This document shows, piece after piece, positions 872-52,756 of a stretch of DNA of 64,000 bases; position 1 is the first letter of the stretch; each line of letters starts with the position of its first letter. Source of the stretch: Picochlorum sp. SENEW3 (lineage: Eukaryota); NCBI GenBank assembly GCA_034226945.1, contig CP120454.1, forward strand, positions 558,001 through 622,000, read 5' to 3'. Under the pieces are notes generated by a model, which saw only the letters and a list, made by a program, of their open reading frames with translations, was not told the DNA's origin and made no database searches. The position numbers and the translations under genes were made by a program.

Positions 872-1303
872 TGTGTTTATTGATCAAATATGGCATTTAA
901 TACTCTTGAGTAGCCATCATGCCCAAAAAATCACCACTTGGCTCCGTTTCTGGTCATTGAGAGCATGGTTGGTCAACCTCCATCAAGGAACCCTGTTCAG
1001 TAGCTGCTGATTAAGTCTAATATACAGCATATCTTCATACTTGAAGCTAGTTATCATTCAAAACATTCTTCCTCTTCTTCCTCTCAGGCCTCCTGTATCT
1101 CTCAAGTGAACTTGGCTCGAACCGACCTTCATAAAATTTCAAATTTTTGCCGACTGGATCGTCTGCCCTCAGGACTGGCCTTGACCAATCACGATGCATC
1201 ATGATCGAGTTTGGGCCTGAAATCCCACCAATCGACTCCTCTCGACGAGTTCTATCGCATGGTGGCATTAATTAGTGTGGGTTACAGCACCAGCCTGGGA
1301 GTT

Positions 1304-2020
1304 CTAAATAACATCATATCCTGATCTATCATAATCTTTTCCGTAATCGATAAACAATTCTTCTCCCGCAGCAATATCTCGATCGGTCACAAACACCAGC
1401 CCAGTGGATGGATCATCCTTGTCATCTTCCACTCTCACATTGACACTCAGACGTGGATGCAGTGATGGTTCATTCACATAACTCAGCGTACAGTCGACAT
1501 CCCATGGCCACCACGTCCCAGGAGACGGCCGCGTACTCGGATACCCACTCTCATCCGATGGATCCAGTATCACCCCTGGTTTTTTTGAAAAGCAGTAATA
1601 CTGTGCCATGGGCGCCAAGACACACTTGGCAGTCATCTCTATATCATTCCTCACTCTCCCTGGGTATGCGCCAAGTACAACATCCCTTGGTATTGCAACC
1701 TTGGAAAACACCCCGTTGCCAGCCCCACTCCCAAGACTGCTCTCTCGTACACGCAACAAATCCTGTCGGGACCATCCTCGTGGCCTCTGTTGATACACAT
1801 ACCATGCAGCACTGCACATGATCTTTGCCCCTTGATACAGCAGACTGATATCACTCATATAGCCAGGGTCATATTCAGCCAACCCTCGCACGACTGTATA
1901 TGGTCGAGTAGTACACTGCTGTGTGATGATGATGGTCTCACAGGGCCTCACCCTTGGTCTTTTGGGTTCTCGTGGCAATGATACAGCCAAAAGACCTGAT
2001 ATAGGTATCGACACAGCCAT
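1304..2020 (-). CDS. SET-domain lysine methyltransferase, possible organellar transit peptide
   Basis: SET motifs GAGNGVF, YVNEP, RDIAAGEELFIDYG. Confidence 0.8.
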   Translation of the reverse strand: MAVSIPISGLLAVSLPREPKRPRVRPCETIIITQQCTTRPYTVVRGLAEYDPGYMSDISLLYQGAKIMCSAAWYVYQQRPRGWSRQDLLRVRESSLGSGAGNGVFSKVAIPRDVVLGAYPGRVRNDIEMTAKCVLAPMAQYYCFSKKPGVILDPSDESGYPSTRPSPGTWWPWDVDCTLSYVNEPSLHPRLSVNVRVEDDKDDPSTGLVFVTDRDIAAGEELFIDYGKDYDRSGYDVI

Positions 2021-2342
2021 CGGACTCTATATATTTATGTAAATACTATGTATTGCTGAAAATGCAATCAGATGGCTGGCGACATCCTGTACAGAGGAGA
2101 TGCTCTGCTTCCGTAAAATGGTATATATAGGCAGCCAGTCATGATGATCTCCAGTCTCTTTCTAAATATAGCTAGGATACCAGAGAGATTGTTCTATTTT
2201 TTATTCAATACGTGTAGTAGATCGTACTTGGAGAGACGTGATACTCTAGTGGAAAAAAATTAAGCGAACGTTTCAAGAAGAAGAATCCTTCGACCAGCAT
2301 CCACGCATAGTATACTACTATTTTCCTTAATACACATAGAGT

Positions 2343-3337
2343 ATGTCTGGAATAGGAACAGGGGTACGTACAGATTACCGTATGTTTCAGACAATCAGGG
2401 ACTGATTGAGTGATCATGGTTCGCCATGACGCTGTTGCTTTGGCGCTTGATTCGAGTATTATGTGATGGATTTTTCACTTTTGTATGCAGTATGATTTGT
2501 CTGTGAGTACATTCTCACCGGACGGACGAGTATTCCAAGCAGAATATGCTCAGAAAGCTGTAGACTCTAGTGGGTAGGTCTCTCTTGCTTGTTTATAATA
2601 CTCGCTGATGATGTGTACCTTGATTATTGTTACGGATCCAAACTATCACGGTGGCAACGACGATGACATGCTGCTGCTGCTGTATTTGCAGGACGGTGTT
2701 GGGAATGTGCTGTGCTGATGGTGTCGTGTTGGCTGCTGAAAAGCCAGAGATTTCAAAGCTCATAGAGGAACATTCAAATCGTAGAGCATTTCCTATTGCT
2801 AGACATGCGGGTGCTGTGATTGCGGGGGTTGCCGCTGATGGTAGAGCAATTATTGACAGAGCACAGGCAGAAGCATCCAACTACAAATCATTCTATGGAG
2901 ACAAGATACCAGGGCATGTCCTGGCTGAGCGTGTAGCATCTTTTGTACATTTATTCAACTTGTACTGGTATGTTCGGCCCTTTGGTGTGTGTACCCTCTT
3001 GGCCACCTGTGATCACTCGGGTCCTCAGCTGCACATGGTGGATCCCTCTGGGACAATGCACCAATACAATGCTACTGCTGTCGGGAAGGGTCGACAGGCG
3101 GCAAAGAATGAGTTGGAAAAGCTGAAATTGGATCGTATGACGTGTAAGGAAGCTCTGTTCTCTGCTGCAAAGATTTTACATCAGGTTCATGATGAGGAAA
3201 AGGCTTTTGAACTTGAAGTTGCATGGATTTCTGCAGATACTGATTACGTGTTTACACGAGTGTCGAATGAAGAGGTAGCTGAGGCTGAACAGGCGGCAAA
3301 GGCAGCCATCGAGGCGGAGGATATGGATGACGAGTAG
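2343..3337 (+). CDS. PAG1: 20S proteasome subunit alpha 7 (alpha type-3); 3 exons
   Basis: Exons 2343-2363, 2491-2573, 2692-3337 join in frame via GT-AG introns: [27 protein letters not shown]... Confidence 0.95.
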
Positions 3338-3624
3338 CTTGTTTTGTTCTTCATGTAAACCAGGGTCAAAACAAGTTTTTAATTGCTTTATTACAGAGTA
3401 GATACGCCCTAAAACGTATCTTGTCCAAGATACTTTGTAGATACGTTCGCATTGTCTGCGCATGCGCCGCATTGGCATTAAAAATAAGTTCTATTGTACC
3501 TATGTTAGTAAACAAGGACAGGAAAATACTTTGTGAGAGACAGAGCAACGGCCGCGACGACCGGAGAGCGTTCATCAACGCAGATTCAACAAAATCGGTC
3601 TTGGGTCCGGGGATGGGGTCGAGC

Positions 3625-4209
3625 ATGGAATGGGATGCAGAGTATCTGAGTAAATGGTGTGGGATTTATGGTCATGGCATGGGTGAATGGGGCCGAGGAT
3701 CGCGAGAGTGCAGTTCTTCAGGGCATTTTGACTATGACAGTCTGGGCATTTGCACGAATACTGATAGCTTTGGCGTGGTGGAGTATACTCGAAAGAAGAG
3801 TCATGGTCACTCAATGAGTGCGAATGACGAATCATCGCCATCGTCTTTGCCTTCGTCGTCATCCAGTGTGGAGGGCAGTGACCCTGCGACTCCAGACACT
3901 GGACAAACAGTGACTCCTTCCAGCGGCATCATGTTTATCTTCCAGCAGTCGTATCCAGATGTATCGTTAGAAGATCAACAGGAAGGAGGCGTTGGTTGCG
4001 TGATGGATGTGGGATGTCCCGAGCTGAGCAATGTGACTGACACTCCAGGTACCAGGCAGATGGGTGTCATGAGTGCGTACGAAATCAATGTGTTGTCTGG
4101 ATTGGCAGAGGATCAGCATGATGAATACAATGTGTATCCACGGGAAGGCTGCATTCGTGTGGGCAGATCAAGGTCTTTGGGTGATTGCCTCACAGCACCA
4201 GCAGCATAG
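3625..4209 (+). CDS. hypothetical protein, start uncertain
   Basis: Long Ser/acidic-rich ORF; no family recognised. Confidence 0.45.
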   Translation: MEWDAEYLSKWCGIYGHGMGEWGRGSRECSSSGHFDYDSLGICTNTDSFGVVEYTRKKSHGHSMSANDESSPSSLPSSSSSVEGSDPATPDTGQTVTPSSGIMFIFQQSYPDVSLEDQQEGGVGCVMDVGCPELSNVTDTPGTRQMGVMSAYEINVLSGLAEDQHDEYNVYPREGCIRVGRSRSLGDCLTAPAA

Positions 4210-10400: not shown

Positions 10401-13400
10401 TTATGCCTTGCCCTGGGTCTGAGCGGCAACCTCAGCTGCAAAGTCCTCTTCCTTCTTTTCAATACCCTCACCGAGCACAAAACGATTAAATCTTCTAACC
10501 TGGATATTCTCTCCGATCTCTGCAATGGACGCCTTGATCACCTCAGCGACAGTCTTGCTTGTGTCCTTGATGAATGGCTGCTCCAACAAGGCCATCTCCT
10601 TGGCAATCTTGTCCAAACGGCCCTGGATGATCTTCTCACGAATCTCTTCAGGCTTGGACTTGAGATCCTCCTTCTCCATCTCGATGGCTCTTTCCTTCTC
10701 AAGCATCTCAGCGGATACATCCTCTGTGGATACCACTGTGATTTGTGGGCATGCAGCAATCTGCATGGCGAGATCGTTTACAAGTTCCTGGAACTTCTCA
10801 CCGCGAGCGACAAAGTCAGTCTCGCAGTTAACTTCTGCCAAGACACCCAATCTAGATCCGGCATGGATGTAAGAAGCAATAGCTCCCTCTGCAGCAATAC
10901 GCCCAGACTTCTTATCAGCAGATGCGAGTCCCTTCTTGCGCAGGAAATCCTTGGCAGCATCAACATCACCTCCGCATTCGGCCAATGCCTTCTTGCAGTC
11001 CATCATTCCGGCTCCTGATGCCTGGCGAAGCTCCTTCACCAACTTGGCAGAGACAGCAACAGCTGGTGCAGCTTCTTCTTTCTTCTCCTCCTTCTTGTCA
11101 TCATCCTTCTTCTCAGCCGCCTTGGCAGCCATGGCGCTTGTTTGAGCCTCAACCTCAGCTGCAAAGTCACCCTTGTCCTCTACCTCAATTCCTTCTCCCA
11201 AATTGAAGCGACCAAATCTTCTGACCTGGATATTCTCTCCGATCTCTGCAATGGACGCCTTAATCACCTCAGCGACAGTCTTGCTTGTGTCCTTGATGAA
11301 TGGCTGCTCCAACAAGGCCATCTCCTTGGCAATCTTGTCCAAACGGCCCTGGATGATCTTCTCACGAATCTCCTCAGGCTTGGACTTGAGATCCTCCTTC
11401 TCCATCTCGATGGCTCTTTCCTTCTCGAGCATCTCAGCAGAGACATCTTCTGTAGAAACCACAGCAATATCTGGGCATGCAGCAATCTGCATGGCGAGAT
11501 CGTTTACAAGTTCCTGGAACTTCTCACCACGAGCGACAAAGTCAGTCTCGCAGTTCACCTCAACAAGGACACCCAATCTAGATCCGGCATGGATGTAGGA
11601 AGCGATGGCTCCCTCTGCAGCAATACGCCCAGACTTCTTATCAGCAGATGCGAGTCCCTTCTTGCGCAGGAAATCCTTGGCAGCATCAACATCACCTCCG
11701 CATTCGGCCAATGCCTTCTTGCAGTCCATCATTCCGGCTCCTGATGCCTGGCGAAGCTCCTTCACCAACTTGGCAGAGATGCCTCCGGCATCTGCCTTGG
11801 CCTCCTTTGCTGGAGCAGCCTCTTCCTTCTTTTCTGGAGCAGCAGCCTTGGCTTCAGTCTTCTCTTTCTTTGCTTCCTTGGTAGCAGTGTCCTTCTTAGC
11901 TGGCTTCTGCACCGACAAACAATGTGATACATATGTCAGTATATATTGTCATGCCCACTCCTGGATGATGGAGGGCACGTTATGTGCTTGTTTCTTACAT
12001 ATGTGCATATTACACAGCATAATATTCAATGTAAGAAACAAGCACTGATTGCCCTCACAGTAGCTTTTTAAATTGCGTATACAGTATTATCCAGGGTATC
12101 AACAGCGTCGCATATAATTGAAGCAAATCATTCATTACCCACCGATTGGAACATATCTCTAGAGATTCCTGCCTCTGCCAGAACATGGGCAAATGGACCA
12201 GACCCTTCTGGAACCTCCACAACTGCATTGTGCAACAAAAAGTTCCATGTGAGAAAACAACACAATCAGGCTCCAAATTCCTGCCAAGTGTACATACCTG
12301 TAGAAAGTCCCTTGGTCTCAATCTCCTTCTGGGCCTTGATCTCATCATCTGTGAGCTGGGTCAAACTGATCTTCTCCCTGTTGATACCTCCAACACGAAC
12401 TTCCAATACATCTCCCTGCTTGAAGTGTGACAAATGGTCTTCAACACCTTCTGGGAGCTTCATCTGGGAAGAGTGAAGCATTCCTTGGAATCCCTCACCA
12501 ACATCAACAAAGACACCGAATGGTGCGACAGATGTGATTGCACCACTGACCGTGTCACCAGCTTTGACTGGAATCTGTGCCTTTGCCTTTCTCTCCTTCT
12601 TCACACGAGCTTGGCGTGGCTTCTGTGTCTTCTCAGTAGACCCGCCTTCTACAGCAGTCTTGGCAGTGAGAGAAAACTTTTTACGATCATGGTCCACACT
12701 GAGAACACGAACAGAAATGTCTTGGCCGACGGTGACAGCATCAGCAACATTTTTCACAAACTCGTTAGAAATCTGTGAAATGTGCAACAGACCATCAATA
12801 TCACAGCCAATATTCACAAAAGCACCAAAGTCAGTCACGGACACAACTGCTCCTGGATACTCCTGGCCCTCCACAAGGTCACCAATTGTCATAGAAGGTG
12901 CTGGACCTGGCTTTGGCTTGCGTCCCCTACCTCCACCGCGCTTTGGTGCAGCAGCAGCAGCAGGGGCCTCAGCAGTGTTGTCCTCCACCTCAGACTCTGC
13001 AGCAGCATTCACATTCAAGGCTGCCTGGCGGTACACCGAGGATTGTCTCCTAGGGCTGCAAGATATACAATTCATGTGAGCCGATATCGTATCCAGGCAT
13101 AGTCCACCAAGAATGTATGGCTACAAGGTCCCAAACAGTCGCTTCTCCGTCCGCCTTCACCGCTTATCCAGGCACACACCTGCCCCATCCAAACCAATCA
13201 CATTGCCCCATCCCACCCCGGAATTCATCATAATACTGTGGTTTATCAATAAAAGCATCGACAAAATGCCCCATGGCCATCAATCACCCATCGCAGCCTT
13301 GATACCCAAAGTTCACCCACAGACGACCTTTTTACAATCCGTCCCATACCACTCACAGATACGTACATTTTAGATTTTGATCCCTTCACATTGGATTTCA

Positions 13401-13547
13401 GGGCCTGGAGGCCGGTGAATCTAGCCTGCAAGGAAATATTTGAGTTAGCGTTGCTGAGCCACACGACACACTCAGCCGCATCGACGGAAAACTTCCTGAT
13501 CCTCATAGCGTTTTGATACATACCTGCGTCAATCTAGAGGAAATCAT
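10401..13547 (-). CDS. PETs: plastid polyprotein of EF-Ts (PETs): transit peptide, two S1 domains (PSRP-7), two EF-Ts domains; 5 exons
   Basis: S1 motifs ([18 protein letters not shown]) are spliced in frame to two EF-Ts units ([30 protein letters not shown]). Confidence 0.93.
10498..11779. repeat. near-identical ~556-bp direct repeat (10498-11053 and 11224-11779) encoding the two EF-Ts units
   Basis: Long identical runs at a constant 726-nt offset. Confidence 0.92.
11971..12056. repeat. intronic inverted repeat (hairpin)
   Basis: Perfect 17-bp arms 11984-12000 / 12029-12045, with outer GAGGGCA/TGCCCTC and inner ATATTA/TAATAT. Confidence 0.9.
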
Positions 13548-13749
13548 TTTAAAATTTTAATGAATACGGCGATGGGGGAAATGGCGCAGTATGCATTCTC
13601 GATTTCTGCAGCATGCAAGTGGCCTTGATGTAATTGTCCGTTACCTTTCCAAGGCCTTGTTTCATGGGAGCAATATCATTAATGAGTACAATGTTCCTGC
13701 TCATGCATGATATCCCCCAGATTGCGGTACTTTCTTTACACGTGTATGG

Positions 13750-16359
13750 TCATGATATTCGAGAAAGGGACCAATTGGTCTCGGGAGACGGACCCATGCC
13801 AATCTCAAGGTGCCATTGGAAGAGATGCATTGCAGGTTCAATGTCATGCATCACAACAATGCACGAGCTATGGCGCTGTACTTGTTTTATGAGGTCGAGG
13901 GATGACTGTCTATCTATGCCAGATGTACTCTCATCGAGAAGAGCAAGAGGCGGTTTATGAAAGAGGACCCTTGCGATGCAAAGCCTCTGCTGCTGTCCAA
14001 ATGACAAGCACTTGGCCCAGTTGTCCATTGTCTCTACTCCATTTGGCAAAGAGTCTACATATCTTGAGAGACCGACGGATCGAATGATCCGATCCAGATC
14101 ATCACTTTCTGGTCTAATAATCCTAGGATAGGAGATGACTTGCCAGAGGGCGCTATCAGGAGGAGGCATGAGAGGGATTTGGGGAAGCAAAACATGTCCT
14201 ACAGGATTCGAGTCCTTTAGCAGGGTGCGACACATGTGCCTCAGGACTGTTGTCTTCCCTGACCCATTAGGCCCACTGACGACAAGGTGTTCTCCCTTAT
14301 GAATGGCCAGGTGCAGTTTCGAGAGCAACAATTTTTGATTGGATGGGTGTGGGATGTTCTCATCTTGCAGCGAGATGAGCATGTTCTCTTGTCTTCCGAG
14401 TGACCCAATTTTCTGTAGCGCTGCTTTGCACTTGTCAGGATCAGCCGTTGTGAAAAATGTCACTGGATATGTATGGGGTCCATACACAGGATGGACAACC
14501 AGAGGGCAGATGTCACCCTGTTGAATTTTATATTTCAGAATGGAGTGAAATGCCTGGACTTCACTCCACAGACTGCCTTGAGCTCCTCGCAATGCTTTGC
14601 CCCTGCAACAACAAACAATGATGCATTCTTAGAATCTTGGTGACATATTTCATTGAAAACGTAAACACAATATAGTCACAGGAAAAGTGCGTACGTTTTT
14701 GGATCAATGGAGTCTGACCAAAAATCATCTCCCAGTTCTGCTGCCATTGCCTTCTCCCAGGCAAGGTAATCATGTAACGATTGATCCATCGATTCATAAT
14801 CTAATATCTGGCTTGGTTGAAGAGTCATACAGCAGGTTATGTGATCCACAGTGTTCAGTGGAGCGCTAGGGAAGATCTCTCGAACATCCTCCAGAAGGCC
14901 ACCATGGATTGATACAATTGAGACCTCCATGGTGAGATGAGGGCTCCCTGAAAACTGGAAAGGTGTTGGTGGGAGCACAATCGTCCCCATATCTGAAAGC
15001 ACAATATGATTGTATTTATTTCTGGTCATAGATGTGTAGAAAATAAGCTAGATCCAATATGGATGCGTGGCATACCTGTAGGAATCAACTCCTGCATCGA
15101 ACTACTGCCTATTTGTGTAGTTTCCCTTTGTCTGTTCACGCTGGCTACCTCTTCAATGGCACCAAACAAACCGTAAATTCTAGAAATTAAGGCGAGCATC
15201 TCCGACACGTATTCTCCAAGGTCGACTAATTCTGTCAATGAGAAGATAAAGGTCAATGTGAAGAATGATGCATTGCTCACAAACTCTGCCCTTGTACCCC
15301 CATCATCCCCACCTTTGCGTCCAAACAGTATGGCAAAAGACACCAACGCGTAATTTAAAATAGATCCTGTATAATCAATGCATTTTGTAACGCCTACAAT
15401 AGCAGATCGTTTCCACACAGATGCATTCTGAGCACGCAACGCCTCCTGCAAAAGCTTGCCAACAGCCATCTTTTCTGCAGATTGATCTTGTTGCAGTGCA
15501 ATATCCGTCGACTGTTCCTTCATTCTCATATGACCTGCTCGGAAATTACCCTCGGCTTGCTCCACCTGTTGAAGCACATGTGCGAGCGGTAATGCAACCG
15601 CCTTCTGCAACACAATGGAACAGCAAAAGAATCCCACCACAAGAGCAACCGCCAGTATTCCAGTATACGTGCTTGTCAGGTATCCATAAAACAATATTTT
15701 TAAAGGGCTTCCAGAGGCCTTTAACAATACGAGAGAAATTGTTGAACACAATTTCTCAATCTCAGATGTTATCCGTTGGTCGCTGTTGTCAACATGGGAC
15801 ACCTGCCCAAATGCATTCTCCTGAAAATACACCACATGGGCTCTATTCGTCAGTCTCTCCCTCCAAATCACCGCACATTTCCCCCTCACAAATTCACTCA
15901 ACGTCATCAATGCTGTATTCATCGCATACAAAATGGCCACATGTCTCAGTATATGGAGAATCTGTGCTTGATCCAAGTCAATTAAAGCCTTGTACACAGA
16001 TCCAGCTATTTTCCCAACTGCACCATACATATTCATCCGTGATGAGCACTCGATAGAGGAATCACATTGACATTATTATTCAACCTACTGTATTTCATGA
16101 GGACCATTTCAGCGACAGATATAGGAATAAAAACCAAAGCTTCATAAGGCTGTACATGCCTGAAAAGTCTTTGTAGATACTGACGATACCGTCTATCGCT
16201 TTGATCGGCATCTATTTCATTATAAAGTCGATCAATCGATATTCTCGGACCTGGCGGTCCAGTGTCGCCTTGTGGGTCCGTCGCAGAAGAATTTGAAGAA
16301 AACAGTGCATATCCAAACTCCTGCCGCAGTCCTTCAGTCCCCAGCAAGGGTCTCTCCAT
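13750..16359 (-). CDS. ABCD-family (ABCD4-like) half transporter with inserted MMADHC/CblD-like domain; 4 exons
   Basis: Exons 16359-16089, 16017-15076, 14992-14695, 14602-13750 join in frame via GT-AG introns. TMD motifs DNSDQRI and EGNFR; Walker A GPNGSGKT; signature LSFGQQQR; Walker B LLDESTSG. Confidence 0.85.
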
Positions 16360-16798
16360 CGTAAATAATTATAATAAAATAAATAACATTGTGAACTGCA
16401 GCCATTCATGGAAATCCATGGCTCTTTCATGAAGAGGCATTCAAATCTGGCAAGTCCAAACCAGATCTTGATTCATAGATTGAACATGCCTGCCATTCAT
16501 AAAACACCAACACTGACTCTCAGGGGTACACCTAGAGTGTATACGTTTACTCAATGTGATGAGCGACCATCTCCAAGAGGGGACTATCCGATGCATCACT
16601 GCAGATGATGATTCCAGAGTGTTGCTTGGCAGAGGGTGGAATTCCACCAGAGAATTTGCTCCTGTCGTTACATTTGCCATGAGGATCAAACCAATGCGCA
16701 ACGCGTCTGTTATATTTAAAAAATATCCAATTGCATTAATTCAGCTTTGATATGCGCAGATGACGCGAATGTAGCAAAGTGGGCCAAAACAACGAATC

Positions 16799-17512
16799 AT
16801 GGCAGAACAAAGGCTTCAAAAAGAACTCAAAAATATCACCAAGGTACGAATTGGATCACACATGTAAAGAGACGACTCTTTACACATATTATGTACTTTT
16901 AAATGGATAATGCAGAACCCATTGCCACATATCAGAGCTCTTCCAAGTCCCACCAACCTTTTGGAGTGGCACTATGTCCTAGAAGGAGACAGTGACAGCG
17001 CATACAAGGGAGGTTTTTATCATGGAAAGATTATATTCCCGCCCTCATATCCTTATAAGCCTCCATCAATCATGATGATAACACCGAGTGGTAGATTTGA
17101 GACAAATGCAAGGCTTTGTCTGTCCATTTCAGATTTTCATCCAGAGTCGTGGAATCCATTGTGGGGTATCTGTCCAATCTTGCTGGGGCTTCAGTCCTTT
17201 TTTTACGAGGATACTATGACCATGGGGTCTCTCAAGGGAGTATCGGATGCAGAGAAGAAGAGGTTGGCGGCCTCTTCGTTAGAGTGGAATGTGAAGAATA
17301 GTATGATGTTTAGAAAATTGTTTCCCGAGTTGGTCGAACGGTTTCATAGCCAGCAGACTCACCAAGAGGGTGTCGTACAGGCAGAAGAGCCGGATGTGAT
17401 AGAAAGTGAGCCAGCAACACAAAGTAAATCGTCGAATATAGAGAGTACGCTTGCCATCGTCATCATAGGTCTCTTGGCCATGTTGATTGCTCGGATTCTT
17501 CTACAGAACTGA
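16799..17512 (+). CDS. tail-anchored ubiquitin-conjugating enzyme E2 (UBC6/UBE2J type)
   Basis: MAEQRLQKE exon; LEWHYVL, YPYKPPSI, RLCLSISDFHPESWNP; C-terminal TM segment. Confidence 0.92.
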
Positions 17513-26832: not shown

Positions 26833-29800
26833 TTAGTCTATATTGAACATCTTTTTCAATCTGATGATGAGACGCCAGTCATCTTTTGTCATTTCATCTC
26901 TGAACATGGCCTTGAGAACATCAATGCTCTCTCGACTGATTTTGGAGATCAAGGCATCATTGTGATCGAAATGTCTACCGTATAAGCGAGCTGCTTCTTC
27001 TGGGTTGGTGCTTTCAATTTTCATGGCAACCTTGTCTCCAGCAACAGCTTTCTGCAAAGGCTTGCCCTTTTCCTTCTCAAGGCCTGCTATTTTGCCAATT
27101 GTGATTTTCCCTCGTGATGGCACACAGAGTGGTGTTCCTACCTTGGCAATACCTTCGAGAATTTCAACACCAACGATAATTGGGTCCTTCATATTGAAAA
27201 TGTGCTCTGGCATGATTCGAAGGACACATGGGAAGACTGCCTTTTCTTTGGCTGCTTCCTGCTCTTCTTCCTTCACCCTCTTCAAGTATGCTGTGAATTG
27301 ATCAAACAGATGGTAGATAATGTCTGCTGTAAAGATTTGAACGCCCAAGTCCTCAGCGAGTTCCTGCGCCTCTTTGGTGACTGAGACATCGAATGCCAGG
27401 ATGACTCCAAACTTTTTCGCTTTTCTCTCAATCATGATGTTGGCACGCATAACATCGCGTTTATGGACGGGCCCAATATTGATTGTGGAGACAGGGATTT
27501 GAACATCTTCGGATTTCAAGAACTCCAGCAGGGCCTCTAATGAACCAAGGGTTGATGCTTGGACACAGACACCTTCTCCTGTCTTGTCCACTGAACTGAA
27601 TATGTCTTGCATATCTTCCATGACCTCATCTTTAAGGGCTTCCAGGTCATCATCCGGTCCAGCAACAAATAATTGTGTTCCAGCTACAGCAGAGTCGAGA
27701 TTGTTGGCGGCAATTTTCACACCTGTTGCTGCACGTAATTTCTTGTGATGAACATATTGCCCTTTGACTCTAATTTCTTTCATGGGTTGTGGGGTCAACA
27801 GTGCTCGAATTTGTGTCACAATAGGTCCATTGAGACCGCATACAACAATTGTGTCACTCTCTTTGATCTCTCCATTGATCAGGATGATATCGATTGTAGT
27901 ACCCAATCCTTCAATCTGCTTCACTTCTAAGATTGTACATTGGAGGTTTGGAACAAACATGAGCTTCTCCACCATCAAACTCTGTGTCATTTTGACCAGA
28001 ATTTGCATTAAATCTGGTATTCCCTCCCCTGTTATTGCAGATGTTGGGACAATATTGACAAACTGCTTTGGATTCTTATTCTTCCAGTACAAGGAGACGT
28101 TGAGGCCTTGCTCGTTGAGCTGAAGAATCATCTCGGCCATTCTTTGTTCAAATTCCTTAATGCACTGTGGATCCTGGCGCTCTAATGCATCCTGGATTGG
28201 AGAATTTGCCACTGTTTTCCATTGATAAATTCTGTCAATCTTATTCATGGCAATGATGAATGGCGTCTTCCTCATTTTCAGTAGGTTGATCGATTCAATA
28301 GTCTGCTGCTCAAGACCATGCATGAGATCGACCACAAGCACGGCAATATCACAGAGGCCAGAACCTCTTGATCGAAGATTCGAGAACGACTCATGCCCTG
28401 GAGTATCAATGACTAAAAGACCCGGAAGTTTGAGGTCAAATTCTCGCCCTTTACGAAGTTCTTCTGTCCTCTTTTGCAGGGCATCAGCAGGAATGTAGGT
28501 AGCTCCAATCTGCTGTGTGATACCTCCAGCCTCACCATCCTGGACATTCGTCCTTCGAATGTTATCCAGAATCTTTGTTTTACCTGTATCAACGTGGCCG
28601 AGAATACAGCAGATGGGGGATCTCAGATCCTCTGGATTTCTATTGGCCAAAGCTTCCCGGAGTCTTGCTTCTTCCTTTTCTTTTTGAGCTAATCTTCTTT
28701 CCTCCCTTTCTCTGTCGGCCTCGTCTTCACTATCTGTATAATCACTGTCTGAATAATCTGAAGATGAGTATTCTGACGAATCTTCATCAGAGGAGTCTTC
28801 TTCCTCTGATTCCTCTTCGGACTCCTCTGAGGATTTGGTCTGTTGCTTTGCAGATTCTCTTGCCTTCCTTGCAGCTTCAGCCTTCTCTTTCTCCTTTGCC
28901 TCCTTCAGTAATTCATCTTCTTCCTCTGCTGTTGGAAGCCTGATTTCGTCCTCGTCCATATTCTCCCAGTCGTCAGCAGCATCTTCCCATGAGTCTACAG
29001 CTTCCTCCTGGACTGGAGCAGCCTCTTCTTTAACCTCAACCTTCTCTGGTTCCTCCTTCTTTTCCTCTACAACCTGGGAAGAATCTATTTGTTCTTGCAC
29101 AATTGCGCTTTTCGGTTTCTTGGGCTGCGATTTCTTCTTGCTATACACAGGCTTTTTCTTTGCTTGCACTGCAATTGTCACAAATCACACTGTTAGGAAT
29201 CTCATACGAAAGATCATCACATTAAAATACACCGTACATTCTTCTGGATTGATTCCTGCTTGCTTTAGCATCTGCTCACGAACTCGAGCCAGTCTCTCTT
29301 GCTCAGCCTTTTGCTTCTGAGACAGCAATTTACCCTCTTTCTTAAGTTGCTCTCTCTTTGCTGCCTTCTCAGCCTTTCTCCTTGCAGCCTCTTCTTTCTT
29401 CCTTTCCTCTTCTTCTATGAGCCTGCGCTCCTCCTCTTCTTCTCTTCGTTTTTGTTCTTCCGCTAAGCGTTCAGCCTCTTCTTCTGCCTTTTTCCTTGCT
29501 TCTAATGCCTCTTGCATCTTCTTCACAGCAGCAGAGACCTTTGGCTTTTTATCCTTCTCCTTCTCTTTGGCAGCAGCAGCTGCGGCCTCTTTCTTAGCCT
29601 TTTCTTTTGCCTTTTTCTTTGCCTTCTTCTTAGCTGCTGCTGACATTTTCGATTCATCCTGGGCGTCTTCATCCTCAGCCTTGCTTTCGTCAACATGCTC
29701 CTCCTCCTGTGCTATCTTGGTCTCCTCCTCCTGCTCCTTCTTCTCCTCTTCTTTTGAAGCAGGGGCGTCCATTCCAAGCTCTGCTAAAATTGCATCTAAA

Positions 29801-31062
29801 TCTTCTTCCTCCTTCTTCTCTTCTTTCTTCTTCTTTTTCTTCTTATCCTTCTTGCCTTCTGGTGCCTGTTGCTCAACAGGTCCCGACGGCTCTGCTGCCT
29901 CTGTTGTCTCTGAGAGCAACTGATCGAAATCCAGGGCATCAGTTTTGTCCTTCTTCTTCTTCTTTTTCTTCTTGGAATCCTTCTCTGGCTCAGCAGTCAT
30001 TTCCTCTTCGTCCAATCCCAGGGCAGCAAAAGCACTCTCGACTGCCATCTTACCCTTCTTCTTTTTCTTTTTCTTCTTCTCCATAATAAGATCATCGTCG
30101 GACAATTCAGGCTTTTCGGTAGGACAGACATCACCAGGCTTGAATGTGCTAGGTATAGGCGCTAGAACACCATCGGGCTCTTCCTCCCATCCCAGGTCAT
30201 ACCCAGAACACAACATGCCATCACTTTGAACACCACTGACACTGGCACTCTCGATGTCAATACCACTACCTGGAGTCTTTGATCCAACAAGAGCCAGCGC
30301 TACAAGCTTACCACTATCAATTGACTCGACATTTGTCACCACCGACCGTGTTCCAATATCATCTCCACAAAAGATATCACAGATTTTCAGCTTCTTGGAG
30401 GTAGGATGTGGCATGACAGAAGACACCAAACCAATACAGATGATCCCTGCGACATCTTCTTCACCCATATCTTCGTCTTCATCCTCATCTTCATCTCCTG
30501 CCAGCAAAGCAAACGCAGATCCACCATTTAAAGCTTCCTCCTCCTCTTCTTCTTCCTCTTCTTCCTCGTCTTCTTCCTCTTCCTCATCCCCTGCAAGTAG
30601 GGCAAAGGCAGATCCTGCGTTACCCACGCCTTCGTCTTCTTCTTCTTCGTCACCCTCATCATCCCCTCCTAACAGGGCAAAGACAGAGCCACCAGCTCCA
30701 ACATCCTCTTCCTCCTCCTCCATAGCCTGAGCCAATGGGTCAACCACATCGTCCTCATCATCGTCAAATAGAGCTTTCTTCTTCTTATCCTTCTTCTTGT
30801 CCTTCTTTTTCACTGCGCCATTGAAAAAAAACAGGTCAAGCTCCTGCCGCATGTCACTCAAGAGGGAAAGTCTCACTCATATCCCACATTCAGCCCAACA
30901 TGGCAATTCTAGCACTGTAAAATGTCAAAATAATACTCATACATATACCATACCTGCTACAACGGGCTCCTCTTGCTCACCATCGCCTGCGGCGGTCGCT
31001 ACCTCGTCATTCTCAAAGTCGGCAAAAAAGGCAGCCTCAGCATCCTTCTTCTTTCGACCCAT
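26833..31062 (-). CDS. eIF5B: eukaryotic translation initiation factor 5B with N-terminal tRNA-binding OB domain
   Basis: LRSPICCILGHVDTGKT, GGITQQIGA, DTPGHESF, NKID. Intron 29169-29237 joins the two large ORFs in frame. Confidence 0.95.
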
Positions 31063-40162: not shown

Positions 40163-43100
40163 ATGGGGCCATTTCACCCTGCATTGCAAGCAAAGGTATC
40201 AGCTCCTGGGTTGACTTTGATATGGATCAGTCATAATGTGTGTGCTTTGGTGCAGGTCAGTGCTCTAGATCTCAATGAAGATAGAGATTTGATCTCTGCT
40301 TTAGAGCATCTGAATCAAGCAGGGTCCAAAAAGCAGGCGGTAGCTTGTATGAAAGAGGCATTGCAGAAGTTCAAAGATCACTTGGATGCTTGCCAGCAAC
40401 TCTCTCAGAATCACATAGAGGTTTTATCAGATTTGCTCTTTATTCCAGATTCAATTCATCTACACCAACTTTATATCAGTTTTATAAGCGCTCTTCCAGC
40501 AGAGGTGAGGCAGTCAGTTGAGAAGGGTTTGAGTGCCAGGATATCTCCTGAGTCTGAGTCTGAGTATCCACAAATGCTCACTGCTGTCCAGTCATTGTTA
40601 AAAGCATCTATATTTAGTGATATGATGCTTAATATAGCATTAGACATTATGCATGTCATAACTGCTGTTTTGGAGTCCATTCATGAATGCAAAGGGCGCA
40701 GAGACATTGAACAAGCACAGAAAAGTTGCAAAGTGGCTGCCACAATAGGGTACACTATTGTGACCACCTACAGAGGTACCATTTGTCAACTCAATGGGTC
40801 AGAAGAATTTTTGCAATCTTGTTGTCACGTATCTGGTGCAGTGATGAAGGTGCGTTTGAGAGTGATGCTGCTTTGTTGCAACAGCAAAATTCTTTGCCAT
40901 GGGTTTATTTATCATTAAATATTCCATTGCCATTCCATTCAGAAACGTGAATTTGATAATGTGGAGATCACTTTAAGCCTTTTGATATATTCCATCATGG
41001 TAGTATTGGAATCAAATCAGAGGGACGCTTGCATCATTGTCCTTTTGAGCATTCTAGGAGAAGACTCGTTTGTACAGGTGCAAGGGGCTTTGTCATCAGC
41101 TGGTGGCAATGACGATAAACGATCAATTATGGTCTCTGAGAACGCTTCATATTTTCGAAACTTTGCGGCAGATCTCTCTGATCGACAGTCTCTGTTATTT
41201 TTAAGGACCATATCACAGTCCTTGCTAGATGCTCTGTCATCTTGTGATCACGGTGCCCTGCTGGCAGTTTTCAACGATATCTTTTGCAAGGTGTCGGAAA
41301 CCTATCGAGTCGACCCGTGGTCAAAAATCTATTATATGGATTCTATTGCATCAGTTTTGAAGGAAGTTTGTCGGCAGATGGCCAATGCAGCAGGAAATGA
41401 TAACTTATTTGGTTGGATGCCAAGAGGTTTGGAGGAACATGCGCTTCGTGTTGTATTTGATAATTTAGACGATGAGGAAGTCATAGTGATCCGATCATCT
41501 CAAATTTTACTTCAGGATGTACTTAGTGTTGATAAAATTCGACCGAGTGCCCATGGTGGCCCAGGGATCATGATGAAACAGGCCCTTCACTTTTGCTCCA
41601 GTCTCAGTACGCTGCTTGTCCACGAATGCGATGGGAATCTTAACGCAAATCTAACACTTGTGCTTGGAACACTGCAGATAGTCATCAAAAGTCGAAATAC
41701 AGGATATTGCATAGCTTGGAAAAGTATGTCACCGCTCGCCAAGTTTTGCAAGAGAATCCAAAGTTCATTGAAGACACAATACAAGCTATTGCTGAGGACA
41801 GAGCAATAAAAAGTTTGGCATCCTCCGCACTCGCATTTATATGGAGGCAGCTGTACTTTAATAATCAGAGACAATGCAAAAGTTTGAACGATGGCCTCAG
41901 CAAAGAGGAGTCGGTGGATGCTTTATCTCGGGTTTTGGATGCCATGGTGAATGCAGACAAATCTGTACAATCAGCAGTCACATTGTACGTGTTGCCTGGG
42001 CTTGTAAAGAACTGTCGAGAGTCATTCCACGTCCTCCTAGAAAACTTCATGAATTCGTCTCAAAAAGATGAAACTTGGGTACGTATGCTGAAATGCTCCA
42101 AAGGAATGTTGCATTGAACACTTCTTAATTTTCATGGGTTCCTTTTTGCAGTTAGCTTCATGCTTGTCACTATTATCGTTCGGGAAAAAAGAAGCTGTCT
42201 ACGAAAATATTAAAGATCTAGAAACCAAAAGCTTTCCGATTTTCGAGTTAGTAGAGGAAGCATTACTGGCAGAGTCCAATGCTGTCCACATGTCTGCACT
42301 GGAGCTGCTGATTACTTCTGCAAAGACTGTTGATGTGCCAGGCCGGCAAGAACTAGATTTACTGTGGAAGTATTTCAATATGATGATACGATGTACTTCA
42401 AAAACTTCTCGACAAGAGAGTATTGCAATTTTTGTGCAATTTTTAAGGAGAATAAAAGTGTCAGTGGCGGCAGCCTTGACAAGGCCGTCTGATTTTTTGG
42501 AAGAGATTCATATCAATGTGAAATTCGCTGAAGCTTGGCTTCGTCAGCTTTGTCGTCTATGTCTATCATGTCTACACCCAGGAGGCGTATATGGAAAAAA
42601 GTACATGGGAGTCGAATTCTTATGCGTGATCTTACAGGCATTCAGTGTCCTGATTACATCAGATCCAAGACAGCCAATACTTTTGAAGAGGAATGCACCC
42701 TACATGAACATGTTTCAGGACAAGGATGCTGGGCAGGGATTAAAATATGGATCTTTTAAGCCTTTTCCAGATGAACTTTATTCTTTTGAGACCACAGACA
42801 TGCTTCTCACTGCACTGCTGGAAGGTTGGGACAGGATAAGCAATGTGTCTATGTCCATTTTGCTCATGCTTCCATCTCCCATCCCAGGTATGGAGAGCAT
42901 TGATTCCGTATCTCAAGTTTTAAGTTGGGCATTGAAGCTCCTTAATAGCCCTCGCTCGGTTGAATCTGACTCAGGAGCAAAGGTTTTAATGACACTGTTT
43001 ATCAAGTATGTGTCTGAGAGTCAGTGGTCGATTCGGCTCCATCCAGATCTTTCATGCGCCATAGTTCGCCAGAATGATATAGAAAAGCATTCATTGGAGA

Positions 43101-46100
43101 TAGAATTCGTAGAAGATTTGATTTCTTTGAGTCATATGGCTTTCAGTCAAGCTGAAGAAAACTTGGCCAGTGCCTCAAAAAGTGGCATTGCTCATGGATA
43201 TTTGTTGGCTTTGAGATATATCTGTCCACACATGGCTGTGAACCATGTTTCGCAGGCACGTGACTTGATGAATCAAGTGTATCAGTTGCTGGAAAGAGGC
43301 TCTCAGACGATTATACCTTTGTTGGCCTCACCAGGAGAAGGCCTGGCAGATGCAGACCCTGAAATGTTGCCAGGCACCCACCCAAAGGAAACAGATGACA
43401 AGCAGTTTATTCGCGGGGCTGCATGGATCAACTCTAAAGAAATATGCCACTTAGTAGAGAGTATGTGGCTGTTTTGTAATCGATCAGATCTCATGAAGGC
43501 ATGCCAGGGTATCCTAGAGAAGATGGCTGAACTGCTGCTTGAAATTTTGCTGCAAGCAAAACATTATGGGACAATTGACCATGCAAGAGCAGCTCTACAA
43601 TTTGTTTGTAGCAAAAGCAATGACTGGGGCTCAAGTGAACTCTCTGAATCACTTCTAGATCACTTGTTTTCTCAAATGCTGCGCGAAGAGCAGAGCAGGC
43701 GCGACGCAATACGAAGAAGTGGAGGATTGCCTTTTGCAATCACTGCTATTTTGGTTCCACACGCAAAGTCTTATCTGCCCATGATGGCTATGAAAAGGCT
43801 TTTGAATGTGTTAAAAATAGATACAAGATACGAAACGGGTATATATTGGCCAAAGGTGCACGCCCTCAATGCTCTGAGATTAATTTATTCAGAGAGCAAG
43901 CTGTCGGCCCTTGACACATTTTATGCAGATGGTAAGAATGTCATATGTATCTTCCTGATGTCCATGTATCGCTCTTATGACTGATAGAGGTATGCATGCT
44001 TCGCAGGTTTTAGGCTTATATTGATGTCATTTTCAGATCCAAGTTGGGAAATCAGGAATGCAGCATCTCTCTGCTTTGCATCACTGGTTTCCAAGGTGAT
44101 GGGATTTTCAAACACCGAGCACAGAGATCATGCTGAGTTTTGGCCCAAGCGTTCCCCAACTGCATCGCAATTTTTTCAAAAATACGAAAGTGTAGGAAGT
44201 TTCATTCTAGAGGTTCTTGAGCGGAGCAATACATCTGCCGAGTCTGTGCAGCCATGCTGTGAATCAGAACAATTGTTGTCACCCATACTAGCACTCCTGT
44301 GCCGCTTGAGACCTACCATTATGGACGAGCAGGAGCATCTCTCGACTAAATTTCAACAATATGCAAATCTTCTGAAGAATTGTAGTGCCTCGAGAGAGAT
44401 GGCGATCAGGAAATTTGCCTCCAGGGCATTTGTTTCGGTTGTTCCTTCATCAGTGTGGAATGTGTGGTCTGAGCAACTCTCAACCAGCATAGCCAAAGAA
44501 CTGTCATCCCAGCATGTGAATTGGAATCGGGTACATGGCCATACGTTACTCATAAAAGAGATTTTGAGAGTCTATTACTCGTTTACCAAGCAATCAGAGG
44601 ACATTAGCAAGGCAGTGTGCCAAAAACTAGGTCGATCAATTCGTGAAAGCATTCCCATTGACTCTCTTGAAAAACTATTGTGCTGCCCACCTGTTGCCGG
44701 AGAGCTCTTGCAAGTGTGCATTCTGCTAGCCCGCCTTAATCGGCTTGAGACTTTTGACATGGAAATGTTTGAATACTACGGGGGCACAGTTCTGAATTTG
44801 CTCTGGCCCGTGTTCATGGATGACAGGACATGGAATGACAATGTTCCAAGCTTATCAGCAATTAGAAAGCGCCTTTCCGAGCTCAAATTTGCATGGGTGT
44901 TTCCCGTGCTATGCAAAATAAATGATTCAATATCTACATGTGCCACATACATGCAGGAGACGCATAGAGCGCTGCAATGCCCTGATTATGAAGTGAGAGA
45001 TGCTGCCCTCAAGTGCCTCCTAGCAAATTTTGAAACTATTATATTACCCCAAATAAATTCACACGATGAGCTTGGGCGTGATTTATGTTCGTTGTATACG
45101 ACTATCAGGGCGTTATGGGTACATGAACCGGCGTTTTATCCGAGAATTCGTATGCTTCAGACTCTGAACATGATGCATGGGTATCTGTGGAAGTCACATG
45201 GCAAGCATTTGATCCTGAGGGACCAACTTGTCGACTACTACAATGCAGATGACGGCAAGAATCCAGCCTTACTACAAGAGATGATTGTATATAGTATGCA
45301 TGATGCTTTATATCATAAAACCAAGGGCACTGCCATATTTGCACTGGGCATGATCCTCGCCTATAGCCATCCACAGCATCCAGCAAATCTTCGCCAGGCC
45401 TGCCTTCAGAGCATGAACATTTCAGGTCTCATGAATCCGTACGCCTTTTGTCCTCCTGATCCAAGCAGTGCTCCTGATATTATATGTCATACCAGCATAG
45501 ATCAGTACATGGAATTTTGGTCTTCTGTTCTCAGACTCCTAGAAGATGAAGAACCAGACATTAGGGTGGAAGCATCCTCATCTTTGCAGCAATGTATGTT
45601 CAGCAAAAGCGAAATCTCAAGAAGCAAATATGGAGAAGTCAGAGTTGAGGAGATTCAAGAAGGCATTTTGCAATGGCTTGGAGGAGCTCTGTCTCATTAC
45701 CCATCCTTCACCTCTCACCTCCAATCATGGATATGCATTCCAGAAGCATGCAGGAAACATATTCACCAAGTTCTTGCTGGAAAGGATGACGCAACTATAT
45801 TTAAGGAAGAAACAGCCAATCAGCACACAGATCCTCTGATTTTGGCCAATCTTGCAAGCAAACATCTCGCACAGATGGCAACATCTAGTGCTCTCTCTGA
45901 GGAACAACAGGATGCCATGCACGAGTGGTTGGGCGAGATAATCAGTGCACTCGAGGATTTTATACATTCTTACATGGATCTGAATGGCATCTTGTATCAA
46001 GAACTCATTCCTACCATCTACGAGGACGTCTACAGACTCTTTGCTGCCTTGTGGACAGCATCCCATTTGGCTCCAACCACCATCCAAGGCCACATGTATA

Positions 46101-46285
46101 AGGTTTCCAAGCTCGCACATCTATCGCAAAATACAGAGCAGCAAAACTTTGTCTCTCTAACGTTCACTCAACCTGCAATTAGTGCCCTGATGGCATCTGC
46201 ATTGGGACACGACAACAGCAGCGACAGCACAAATGACCCTCATGACTCTTGTTTCAAAATATCCACTCGTTGGCAACTTGTCTAA
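40163..46285 (+). CDS. THADA: THADA/Trm732-like ARM-repeat tRNA methylation cofactor (DUF2428), multi-exon
   Basis: IRRSGGLPF, KVHALNALRLI, WEIRNAA; consecutive ORFs joined by GT-AG introns. Confidence 0.85.
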
Positions 46286-50879: not shown

Positions 50880-51111
50880 GATTGTATAAGAGCATGACAT
50901 CACGAGTATTGATGTACTCAATAGGATATCTCGCACACATTGTGTGACTACTCCATCATAGAGTGGCCATGAATGCAGTACGCTTTTCAACTCGCATGGC
51001 TACTATTATTTAATTATTCCTTGTATTTTGATAAATACAATCTCTGAAGAACTCATTGATATCAAATCGAGCCGATAGTAGATATTTTGTCGAAATACGC
51101 GTAGACCCAGC

Positions 51112-52756
51112 ATGTCTGTGAGGCAACACGCTGGCGCTTCTCGTACAATGTACTCTCTGGGGACACGCCATACGTGTATATATCGCAGTTTTAAGAATTA
51201 TAAATGCATCAGAGGGGTCATGCCACAGAAAGGCGCACAAATATCCCCAGTCTGCTCTCGTGGCAGTCAGCGCCTTAGAGCAAGCAGCAGTGCAGAGAAA
51301 CGCATGGATCCTCATGAGGAAGAATGGTTTCCTGATTTGACGTTAAAAAGAGTTTCAGATGAGGTGGATTCGTATGATGTGGTCGTTGCTGGTGCTGGGC
51401 CATCTGGACTTGCTGTTGCTAGCAGAGTTGCTGGGGCTGGGTTCAAGGTAGCTGTGATTGATCCACAGCCGTTGGGGCAATGGATTAACAACTATGGTGT
51501 ATGGGTGGATGAATTTAATGCCATGGGGTTGGATGATTGCTTTGATGTTGTGTGGCCGACAGCGACAGTGCATTTGAATTCATCATCAGACGGTGAGAGG
51601 ACTCTGAAGAGGCCTTATGCTCGGGTGGATAGACCCAAGTTGAAGAGGAAGTTGTTGCAGCAGTGTATTGATAATGGTGTTGAGTTCAAGTATGCGAAAG
51701 TGAGAGATTCAAGCGTGATGGATGAGGTGACTGCTGTTGTGTGTGATGATGGGACTCGTGTGAAGGGGACATTTGCTGTGGATGCGACTGGGCATAGCAA
51801 GGCGCTGATCAAATATGATGGAAAGTATGATCCAGGGTATCAAGGGGCATATGGAATTACAGTGAATGTCGAGTCGCACCCATTTGATGTGGATAAAATG
51901 CTGTTTATGGATTGGAGGGATGATCACTTGGATGGGTGTCCTGAGCTCAAGGAGAGCAACGCAAAGTATGTTTGTGTTTTTTTTTGTGTGTATATCAAAG
52001 CTGGTGTGTATTTTCATTATATTTGATGCATGTTTCTATTCTTGAAAATGCAGGCTGCCGACATTTTTGTATGCCATGCCGTTTTCTCCAACCAAGGTGT
52101 TTCTGGAGGAGACATCCCTGGTAGCCAGACCAATCATTCCTTTCCCTGAACTAAAAGCACGCCTGGATGCTCGAATGGCTCATCTAGGTATTAAAGTTTT
52201 ATCAGTAGAAGAAGAAGAGTATTGCTCGATTCCCATGGGTGGGATCCTTCCACGATTGCCTCAAAGGATGATTGGTGTCGGGGGGACAGCTGGAATGGTT
52301 CATCCTTCTACAGGCTATATGATTGCAAGGGTGTTGGGAGCGGCTCCAACAGTGGCTGATGCATTGATCGATGAATTGTCTTCCTTGGGAGGACAAGATA
52401 AAGCCAATTGGTCTCCATCTAAATCATCCGAGATTGATTTGGACCAAGCATCTGAGGAGATTTGGTCCAAAATATGGCCCAATAGTAGAATACGACAGAG
52501 GGAATTTTTCAATTTTGGAATGGAAGTGCTTTTGAAACTTGATCTGGCTGAAACTAGGGAATTTTTTGCTGCATTCTTTGCTCTGAGTGATTACCACTGG
52601 CAAGGGTTTTTATCCTCCAGATTGTCCTTCATTGAGCTGATTGGGTTCGGGCTGTCACTCTTCGCCAAATCCAGTAATGAGGCGAGGCTCAATCTGCTTT
52701 CCAAAGGCTTCCCTGGCCTTGTCGTTACGCTTGCAAAGTTGACAAAGACTCTGTAG
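51112..52756 (+). CDS. LCYB: lycopene beta-cyclase; one intron
   Basis: DVVVAGAGPSG, NNYGVWVDEF, FMDWRD, FLEETSLVARP, GMVHPSTGY. Confidence 0.92.

Follow-up and report, generated by a model that had tools for sequence, protein, structure and literature searches.

An ABCD4-like half-transporter with an embedded CblD-type domain in Picochlorum sp. SENEW3: a candidate single-chain protein for cobalamin export and hand-off

The window analysed here is a stretch of 64,000 nucleotides of DNA from Picochlorum sp. SENEW3 (contig CP120454.1, positions 558,001 to 622,000), and the element in question is a gene on its minus strand, 16359..13750, that encodes an ABCD-type transporter with an additional domain between the transmembrane domain (TMD) and the nucleotide-binding domain (NBD). 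The transporter part appears closest to ABCD4 (cblJ), and the additional domain is, on profile evidence, a homologue of the C-terminal domain of MMADHC (CblD, cblD): in the reading that we favour, the protein would combine export of vitamin B12 (cobalamin) with its hand-off on a single chain. When joined by script, the four exons give a frame of 2364 nucleotides, comprising 787 codons and one terminal stop, and a further stop lies in frame three codons upstream of the ATG. The gene is built up as follows:

13750..16359, minus strand: whole coding region of the fused transporter, 787 residues, four exons and three introns (script joining and run contigs)
16089..16359, minus strand: exon 1, with the start codon at 16359-16357, an acidic N-terminal tail and the start of the TMD (script joining)
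16018..16088, minus strand: intron 1, 71 nucleotides, GT..AG (spliced out in a run X3 contig)
15076..16017, minus strand: exon 2, the bulk of the ABC_membrane_2 TMD (Pfam PF06472, 1.4e-36; best PDB sequence match human ABCD4, 2.8e-29)
14993..15075, minus strand: intron 2, 83 nucleotides, GT..AG (spliced out in a run X3 contig, retained in a run X8 contig)
14695..14992, minus strand: exon 3, the N-terminal half of the MMADHC-like domain (family-insert and independent profiles)
14603..14694, minus strand: intron 3, 92 nucleotides, GT..AG, interrupting the MMADHC-like domain (spliced out in a run X3 contig)
13750..14602, minus strand: exon 4, the C-terminal half of the MMADHC-like domain, the NBD and the stop codon (script joining, Pfam)

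In order to check the splicing, contigs from public runs were placed on positions 13600-16500. The contigs of run X3, which is RNA by the tool's guess only, are 95-99% like the window at a depth of about 145-170, and they join 16017 to 16089 and 14992 to 15076; at the third joint 14601 is joined to 14695 with one letter between, which amounts to the proposed intron at 14603-14694 together with a base difference. A single X3 contig of 1539 nucleotides extends from the NBD across the complete insert to the TMD and lacks both inner introns; in the contigs of runs X1 and X2, which are probably DNA, the introns are retained. The residues across junctions 1 and 3 are identical in relatives that are encoded as one open reading frame (ORF): relatives P0004 to P0011 each possess one uninterrupted ORF with the domain order of the window protein, with one of these clusters including a complete MMETSP transcript ORF, and relative P0002 has its own shorter in-frame intron at the place of intron 3 and reads through it. 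The gene is real, spliced as proposed and carried on one transcript-like molecule: four exons joined in frame through GT-AG introns had been claimed in an earlier note made from the letters alone, and all three junctions are found joined in X3 contigs, with the insert neither skipped nor contributed by a separate gene. The 5' leader (16360-16460, minus strand), which is covered by an X3 contig, holds several upstream ATGs that are out of frame with the main ORF.

The product consists of three domains:

15122..16185, minus strand: TMD, residues 59-389, with intron 1 inside (family profile; long helices at the equivalent stretch of the P0004 model)
14383..14992, minus strand: MMADHC/CblD-like domain, residues 405-577, with intron 3 inside (family insert profile 251.8 bits; independent profile 130 bits)
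13786..14361, minus strand: NBD, residues 585-776, with Walker A, Q-loop, signature-like motif, Walker B and H-loop (Pfam PF00005, 2.2e-17, and family profile)

This order of an ABCD TMD, an extra domain and an intact NBD bears out the architecture first read from the DNA. For the exon 2 product ABC_membrane_2 scores 126.7 bits (cut-off 24.4), ABC_tran is matched by the exon 4 product, and a single NBD after the TMD makes the protein a half-transporter; in the translation, Walker A reads GPNGSGKT, the signature-like motif LSFGQQQ, Walker B LALLDE and the H-loop VMHD, and the Q-loop is present. Searched against PDB sequences, the TMD of the window protein gave 105.7 bits with human ABCD4, 89.5 with Arabidopsis ABCD1 and 29.6 with ABCD3, and no match with human ABCD1 at E up to 0.001. 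The ten best unfused relatives that were looked up comprise five from animals, which bear the name ABCD4 or "lysosomal cobalamin transporter ABCD4-like", together with proteins of the fungus Basidiobolus, one nematode and the green algae Bryopsis and Ostreobium, and one unnamed protein. Judged by sequence, the ABC part is thus closest to ABCD4 rather than to the peroxisomal ABCD1-3. At the N-terminus (16342-16359, minus strand) the protein carries a short acidic di-leucine-like motif, M-E-R-P-L-L, and a motif of this kind is also found at the N-terminus of most relatives (P0004-P0011 and P0003) as xRPLL, EExxPL(I/M) or ETPLL. Acidic di-leucine motifs can direct membrane proteins to lysosomes or vacuoles, and this N-terminal motif would fit an ABCD4-like location.

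The insert itself, of about 175 residues, follows directly after the linker of the sixth transmembrane helix (TM6). It had been placed at about 14450-14935 with a length of about 160 residues; its position between TMD and NBD stands, and its extent proved slightly wider. The residues quoted in the earlier note across the splice junction, and the C-terminal motif, are present in the translation. The likeness to MMADHC was followed through the protein family: a word-based search for long proteins with the insert part of exon 4 found none, and a TMD search for longer proteins reached nine relatives of 550-1043 residues. A PF10229 label had been precomputed for two of these nine, one of them being the Klebsormidium nitens "ABC transporter D family member 4"; upon rescanning, MMADHC was matched between TMD and NBD in eight of the nine, with scores of 14.7-25.9 bits that stay short of the cut-off of 27, and the ninth is truncated. 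An ESM Atlas feature search, which serves as a lead only, ranked MMADHC clusters first (0.84 and 0.88). Two profiles were then used, one made from the insert regions of the family (A1) and one from eight full-length relatives (A2), the latter in a full-library HMMER search. Profile A1 matched MMADHC in the PDB (5cuz/5cv0 at 3e-11, 5a4r at 8.9e-11, 6x8z at 2.2e-9 and 9mrs at 7.3e-9) over residues 137-288 of 296, with the next, unrelated PDB match at E 1.1. The insert was recognised by the family insert profile in 30 of the best 150 representatives from the A2 search, and 14 of 28 newly scanned, more distant fused representatives lie above the Pfam MMADHC cut-off (29.8-60.2 bits, scanned at E up to 1e-6), 12 of the 14 showing the order ABC_membrane_2, MMADHC, ABC_tran. 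A further profile, for which 11 Pfam-positive relatives from beyond the subclade of the window protein were used, gave 130 bits with the spliced insert of the window (residues 398-574), and this same profile matched neither an animal ABCD4 nor the Bryopsis protein. Taken together, the A1 match in the PDB, the Pfam-positive fused relatives and the 130-bit match show homology between the insert and the C-terminal domain of MMADHC, even though the sequence from the window itself stays below the Pfam cut-off. The earlier comparison with MMADHC holds at the level of the family profile and of the independent profile and fails for the single sequence against Pfam. Shared with MMADHC are the motif W-x-D-x-(I/V)-D-P-x-x-G and a hairpin cysteine followed by H-x-x-x-G and F-T-x-A, and a counterpart of the mitochondrial leader and of MMADHC residues 1-115 is absent from the insert: what the protein contains of CblD is solely the domain that in humans works for the cytosolic (methylcobalamin) branch.

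Two codons of the insert are of particular relevance to function:

14506..14508, minus strand: codon of Cys536, a hairpin cysteine conserved in the family; it aligns with human MMADHC Cys-262 and adjoins the position of the ligand Cys-261 (A1 alignment)
14560..14562, minus strand: codon of Glu518, aligned with human MMADHC Glu-244 (A1 alignment)

According to the part of the text available for PMC12501144, human MMADHC Cys-261, on the hairpin 254-266, binds the cobalt of MMACHC-bound B12 as upper axial ligand and Cys-262 is the proposed resolving nucleophile, either of the two cysteines can coordinate B12 in vitro, Glu-244 forms a salt bridge with MMACHC Arg-111, and a human MMADHC construct without residues 1-115 works. 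In patients, C-terminal MMADHC missense changes lead to the homocystinuria (cytosolic) form of cblD, as stated in the accessible part of a review (PMC11311337). In the fused family, a hairpin cysteine five residues before the conserved histidine is present in 29 of 32 proteins, the window protein (Cys536) included, and the equivalent of Glu-244, the glutamate of the family S-E-V motif, is nearly invariant in A1. Comparison of the window protein with P0004 gave an identity of 55% over the insert, 49% over the TMD, 42% over the NBD and 7% over the preceding linker; going by these values, conservation of the insert matches or exceeds that of the transporter domains. An AlphaFold2 model was made of P0004 (804 residues, 91 aligned sequences), with a mean predicted local distance difference test score (pLDDT) of 85.1: the insert (residues 407-581) mostly reaches at least 90, the flanking stretches 390-406 and 582-585 remain below 50, and the conserved hairpin cysteine sits in the turn of a beta-hairpin. 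In this model, the insert is a discrete alpha/beta domain on flexible linkers.

The fusion is spread over the green lineage: an architecture survey of chlorophytes had been proposed, and named fused proteins are found both in these (Micractinium, Pedinophyceae) and in streptophyte algae (Klebsormidium, Chlorokybus, Spirogloea, Chara). Trees were calculated on TMD plus NBD with the insert left out (FastTree with 114 rows; an IQ-TREE quick tree with 56 chosen rows), the rows being the best matches of the family profile, a set that does not contain named peroxisomal ABCD1-3 half-transporters, Micractinium or Chara. Both trees recover one clade of the 22 fused rows together with Bryopsis, Ostreobium and P0077 (support 99 in FastTree, 100 in IQ-TREE), and inside this green clade a streptophyte group splits from the rest, which is the pattern expected if the fusion predates that split. 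In the IQ-TREE tree the green clade belongs to an assemblage with the animal and fungal ABCD4 clade, with support of 95 for its separation from the plant full-size ABCD1 halves. Of the claim that the transporter is ABCD4-like and not ABCD1-3, the TMD score, the nearest unfused relatives and this separation speak in favour, and the fork to animal ABCD4 is the part that did not hold firmly (see below); none of the three outcomes by which sequence data could have told against the earlier note, namely a mismatch with the MMADHC profile, separate transcripts or grouping with ABCD1-3, was found.

A metagenome scan yielded 80 loci, of which only L040 contains insert-like pieces, and an intronless locus with a whole insert was not obtained among the 80. 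In L040, at about 890-4114, TMD-like, insert-like (five pieces in two frames) and NBD-like sections lie in order on one strand; this locus is the fused gene of another organism, in a copy rich in introns. Some of the fused relatives have very long gene models (P0058 from Spirogloea with 1383 residues, P0155 with 1924 and P0070 with 2217): one of them is extended N-terminally by 500 residues, and in one, reverse-transcriptase domains are attached, most likely because the gene model was merged with a retroelement.

In the mechanism that we propose, an ABCD4-type half-transporter, with a CblD C-terminal-type domain inserted in the linker that connects its last transmembrane helix to the ATPase domain, would form a homodimer in a vacuole- or lysosome-like membrane and move cobalamin from the lumen to the cytosol. 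Human ABCD4 moves cobalamin from the lysosomal lumen to the cytosol. The tethered CblD-like domain would lie on the NBD (cytosolic) side, as the topology of this ABC exporter fold suggests, and, in the role of human Cys-261, its hairpin cysteine would occupy the upper axial site of a CblC-bound cobalamin; once caught at the exit of the pore, the vitamin would be passed on to methionine synthase. On balance, we consider such a single-chain export and hand-off protein, a cobalamin exporter whose tethered CblD-type domain clasps CblC-bound cobalamin, to be the probable function. A more far-reaching version, which we put forward tentatively and regard as a good deal less likely, is that the green lineage started out with the fused gene, and that the fusion reflects cobalamin passing directly out of the ABCD4 pore onto a CblD thiolate at its cytosolic mouth. 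Were this true, the free MMADHC of animals, together with MMACHC, would dock likewise on ABCD4/LMBD1, and decay or loss of the insert (P0077; Bryopsis, Ostreobium) would go hand in hand with an end of B12 use or a change to a free CblD.

A number of observations weigh against the export and hand-off reading, beginning with the insert itself. The vicinal pair Cys-261/Cys-262 is found in 0 of 32 fused proteins, the lone cysteine aligns with Cys-262 and not with the ligand Cys-261, and three of the 32 have no cysteine at the hairpin position at all; the stretch that matches the human MMACHC-contact loop 186-197 is variable and often bears long insertions. Scanned apart, the two exon pieces of the window insert gave no Pfam match at E up to 1, and the exon 3 piece had no PDB match at E up to 10; the first 70 residues of exon 4 found MMADHC only at E 1.4, rank 4 of 4. 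With the first 198 residues of the near relative P0002 (86% identical), MMADHC was the sole Pfam family and scored 12.8 bits against the cut-off of 27. With the 804-residue P0004 model, the best 50 rows from Foldseek and from VIA were all ABC chains, which masks the fold of the insert. These points leave room for the alternative that the insert, a paralogue of CblD, has given up cobalamin ligation and acts as a docking or regulatory module (a landing site for CblC-CblD, or a brake on the NBD), with a free CblD performing the hand-off. The missing cysteine pair and the position of the window's subclade below the Pfam MMADHC cut-off would both suit such a module, as would the MMADHC clusters of 174-251 residues, mostly eukaryotic, that are listed in the ESM Atlas, and MMADHC is itself described in the available part of the review as repurposing a nitroreductase fold for protein-protein interaction (PMC11311337). 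Against it stand the hairpin cysteine retained by 29 of 32 proteins, a nearly invariant Glu-244 equivalent and a degree of conservation equal to that of the catalytic domains, and the lone cysteine corresponds to a residue that can coordinate B12 in vitro in the human protein, going by the text available (PMC12501144). We therefore hold this alternative to be rather unlikely, albeit the one that best survives.

Further points against cobalamin export and hand-off concern the transporter. Foldseek, run with the P0004 model and over the best 50 rows, ranks ABCD3, ABCD4 and ABCD1 together at about 1e-19; the fork to animal and fungal ABCD4, with support of 93 in FastTree, is open at 88 in the IQ-TREE quick tree; and the ulvophytes Bryopsis (P0076, 595 residues) and Ostreobium (P0210, P0094) have no insert, the TMD abutting the NBD, which on the present gene models could be either secondary loss or gene-model omission. 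P0077, in the streptophyte part of the clade, has a linker of 286 residues (about 367-652) with a vestige of the last MMADHC motif and without the hairpin cysteine, and thus looks like a decayed insert; with the insert absent in Bryopsis and Ostreobium or vestigial in P0077, it would appear to be dispensable in some lineages. The transporter could accordingly be unrelated to B12, a green ABCD half-transporter for another substrate that reuses an MMADHC-like fold: structure comparison does not separate ABCD4 from ABCD1 or ABCD3, Bryopsis and Ostreobium have the transporter without the insert, and a B12-related neighbour was not found among the 41 window ORFs scanned. Against this stands the fact that both fused parts are homologous to members of one human pathway (cblJ and cblD), a coincidence that is unlikely for an unrelated function; furthermore, the TMD scores favour ABCD4 over ABCD3 and leave human ABCD1 without a match at the threshold used, and the nearest unfused relatives include animal ABCD4 and the early-branching fungus Basidiobolus, with cobalamin use reported for all non-Dikarya fungal lineages in the accessible part of a survey (PMC8085122). 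A function apart from B12 is in our view improbable.

The remaining point against our reading is that intron 2 is retained in one contig of 270 nucleotides from an oligo-dT RNA library (run X8, depth 2.8). That the fusion is an artefact, produced from two neighbouring genes or by a wrong read-through gene model, is scarcely credible: this low-depth contig and the guessed RNA label of run X3 are outweighed by the X3 contig that joins NBD, insert and TMD, by the single ORFs of P0004 to P0011 with the transcript ORF among them, and by the insert carried by a fifth of the best 150 representatives. The X8 contig lies at 14822-15091 and is unspliced through intron 2; pre-mRNA, an intron-retaining form or DNA carry-over are possible.

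The surroundings of the gene are unremarkable, with neighbouring ORFs that correspond to ordinary green-algal nuclear genes (isoamylase, lycopene cyclase, DUF1995, S1 plus EF-Ts, proteasome and CCT), a GC content of 0.42-0.51 like that of the surroundings, and no Rfam match over 12500-17500. Several of the neighbours deserve mention in their own right. Directly downstream of the transporter gene and on the same strand (10401-13120, minus strand) lie consecutive ORFs with two S1 domains and with EF-Ts domains, which we take to resemble the plastid S1/EF-Ts polyprotein gene of green algae and plants. At 26833-30876 (minus strand) a tRNA_bind ORF of 563 residues and an eIF5B/IF-2-like ORF of 783 residues abut in frame with a single stop between them, an arrangement that could be due to chance, an intron or read-through. 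A THADA/Trm732-like gene at 42092-46285 (plus strand) is divided into two ORFs of the same frame by two consecutive stops at 43982-43987, probably a short intron. Similarly, lycopene cyclase (51082-52756, plus strand) is split over two ORFs, which match the front and the back half of the Pfam model; a small intron presumably separates them at about 52026-52046.

The significance of the fused protein lies in the step that it would cover. Many algae depend on B12, and to our knowledge its intracellular trafficking in algae has barely been described; in the human B12 pathway, the step from the lysosomal exporter to the cytosolic chaperone is an open one. A conserved natural fusion of the cblJ and cblD products amounts to a Rosetta-stone argument that both act in contact, and the fused gene offers a single-gene handle for testing that contact in tractable green algae. 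Surveys that score CblD and CblJ as separate plant or algal genes may also be affected: a CblD call and a CblJ call in a green lineage may turn out to be one and the same protein.

As had been supposed from the sequence, the fusion seems to have gone without description: no paper describing an ABCD4-MMADHC fusion was found in a full-text literature search. In the part of PMC11439496 that was available the word "fused" is absent and two uses of "fusion" concern methionine synthase, and the CBA1 paper, in its available part, mentions only BLAST homologues of ABCD4 in Chlamydomonas (PMC10828217). Fused proteins are nevertheless already present in public databases, filed as "ABCD4" or unnamed. Comparison with the known systems shows where the window protein agrees with each of them and where it departs. 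Like human ABCD4 (cblJ; PDB 6JBJ, 24VC), it is a half-transporter with an ABC_membrane_2 TMD followed by one NBD; unlike human ABCD4, it possesses about 175 extra residues as a folded domain between TM6 and NBD, with 787 residues as opposed to 606 in the ABCD4 PDB chains, and its signature motif reads LSFGQQQ. Human and mouse MMADHC (PDB 5CV0, 5A4R, 6X8Z, 9MRS) resemble the insert through profile homology over 137-288, the shared motifs and the Glu-244 equivalent, and the predicted hairpin with a cysteine in its turn would match the MMADHC hairpin described for residues 254-266; unlike MMADHC, the insert is not a free protein, lacks the leader and region 1-115, has a single cysteine and does not conserve the contact loop 186-197. 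Further counterparts are green-algal entries filed as "ABCD4", Klebsormidium nitens GAQ88416.1 and Micractinium conductrix PSC73387.1, in which TMD, MMADHC-like domain and NBD are arranged as in the window protein; Chara braunii GBG69418.1, Pedinophyceae sp. YPF-701 CAG9461072.1 and the Chlorokybus and Spirogloea models possess this same architecture. Those of the fused relatives that are in the trees fall in the clade of the window protein and, as measured with P0009 and P0011, are 28-35% identical to it depending on the region; many of them differ from the window protein in carrying long low-complexity insertions inside the MMADHC-like domain.

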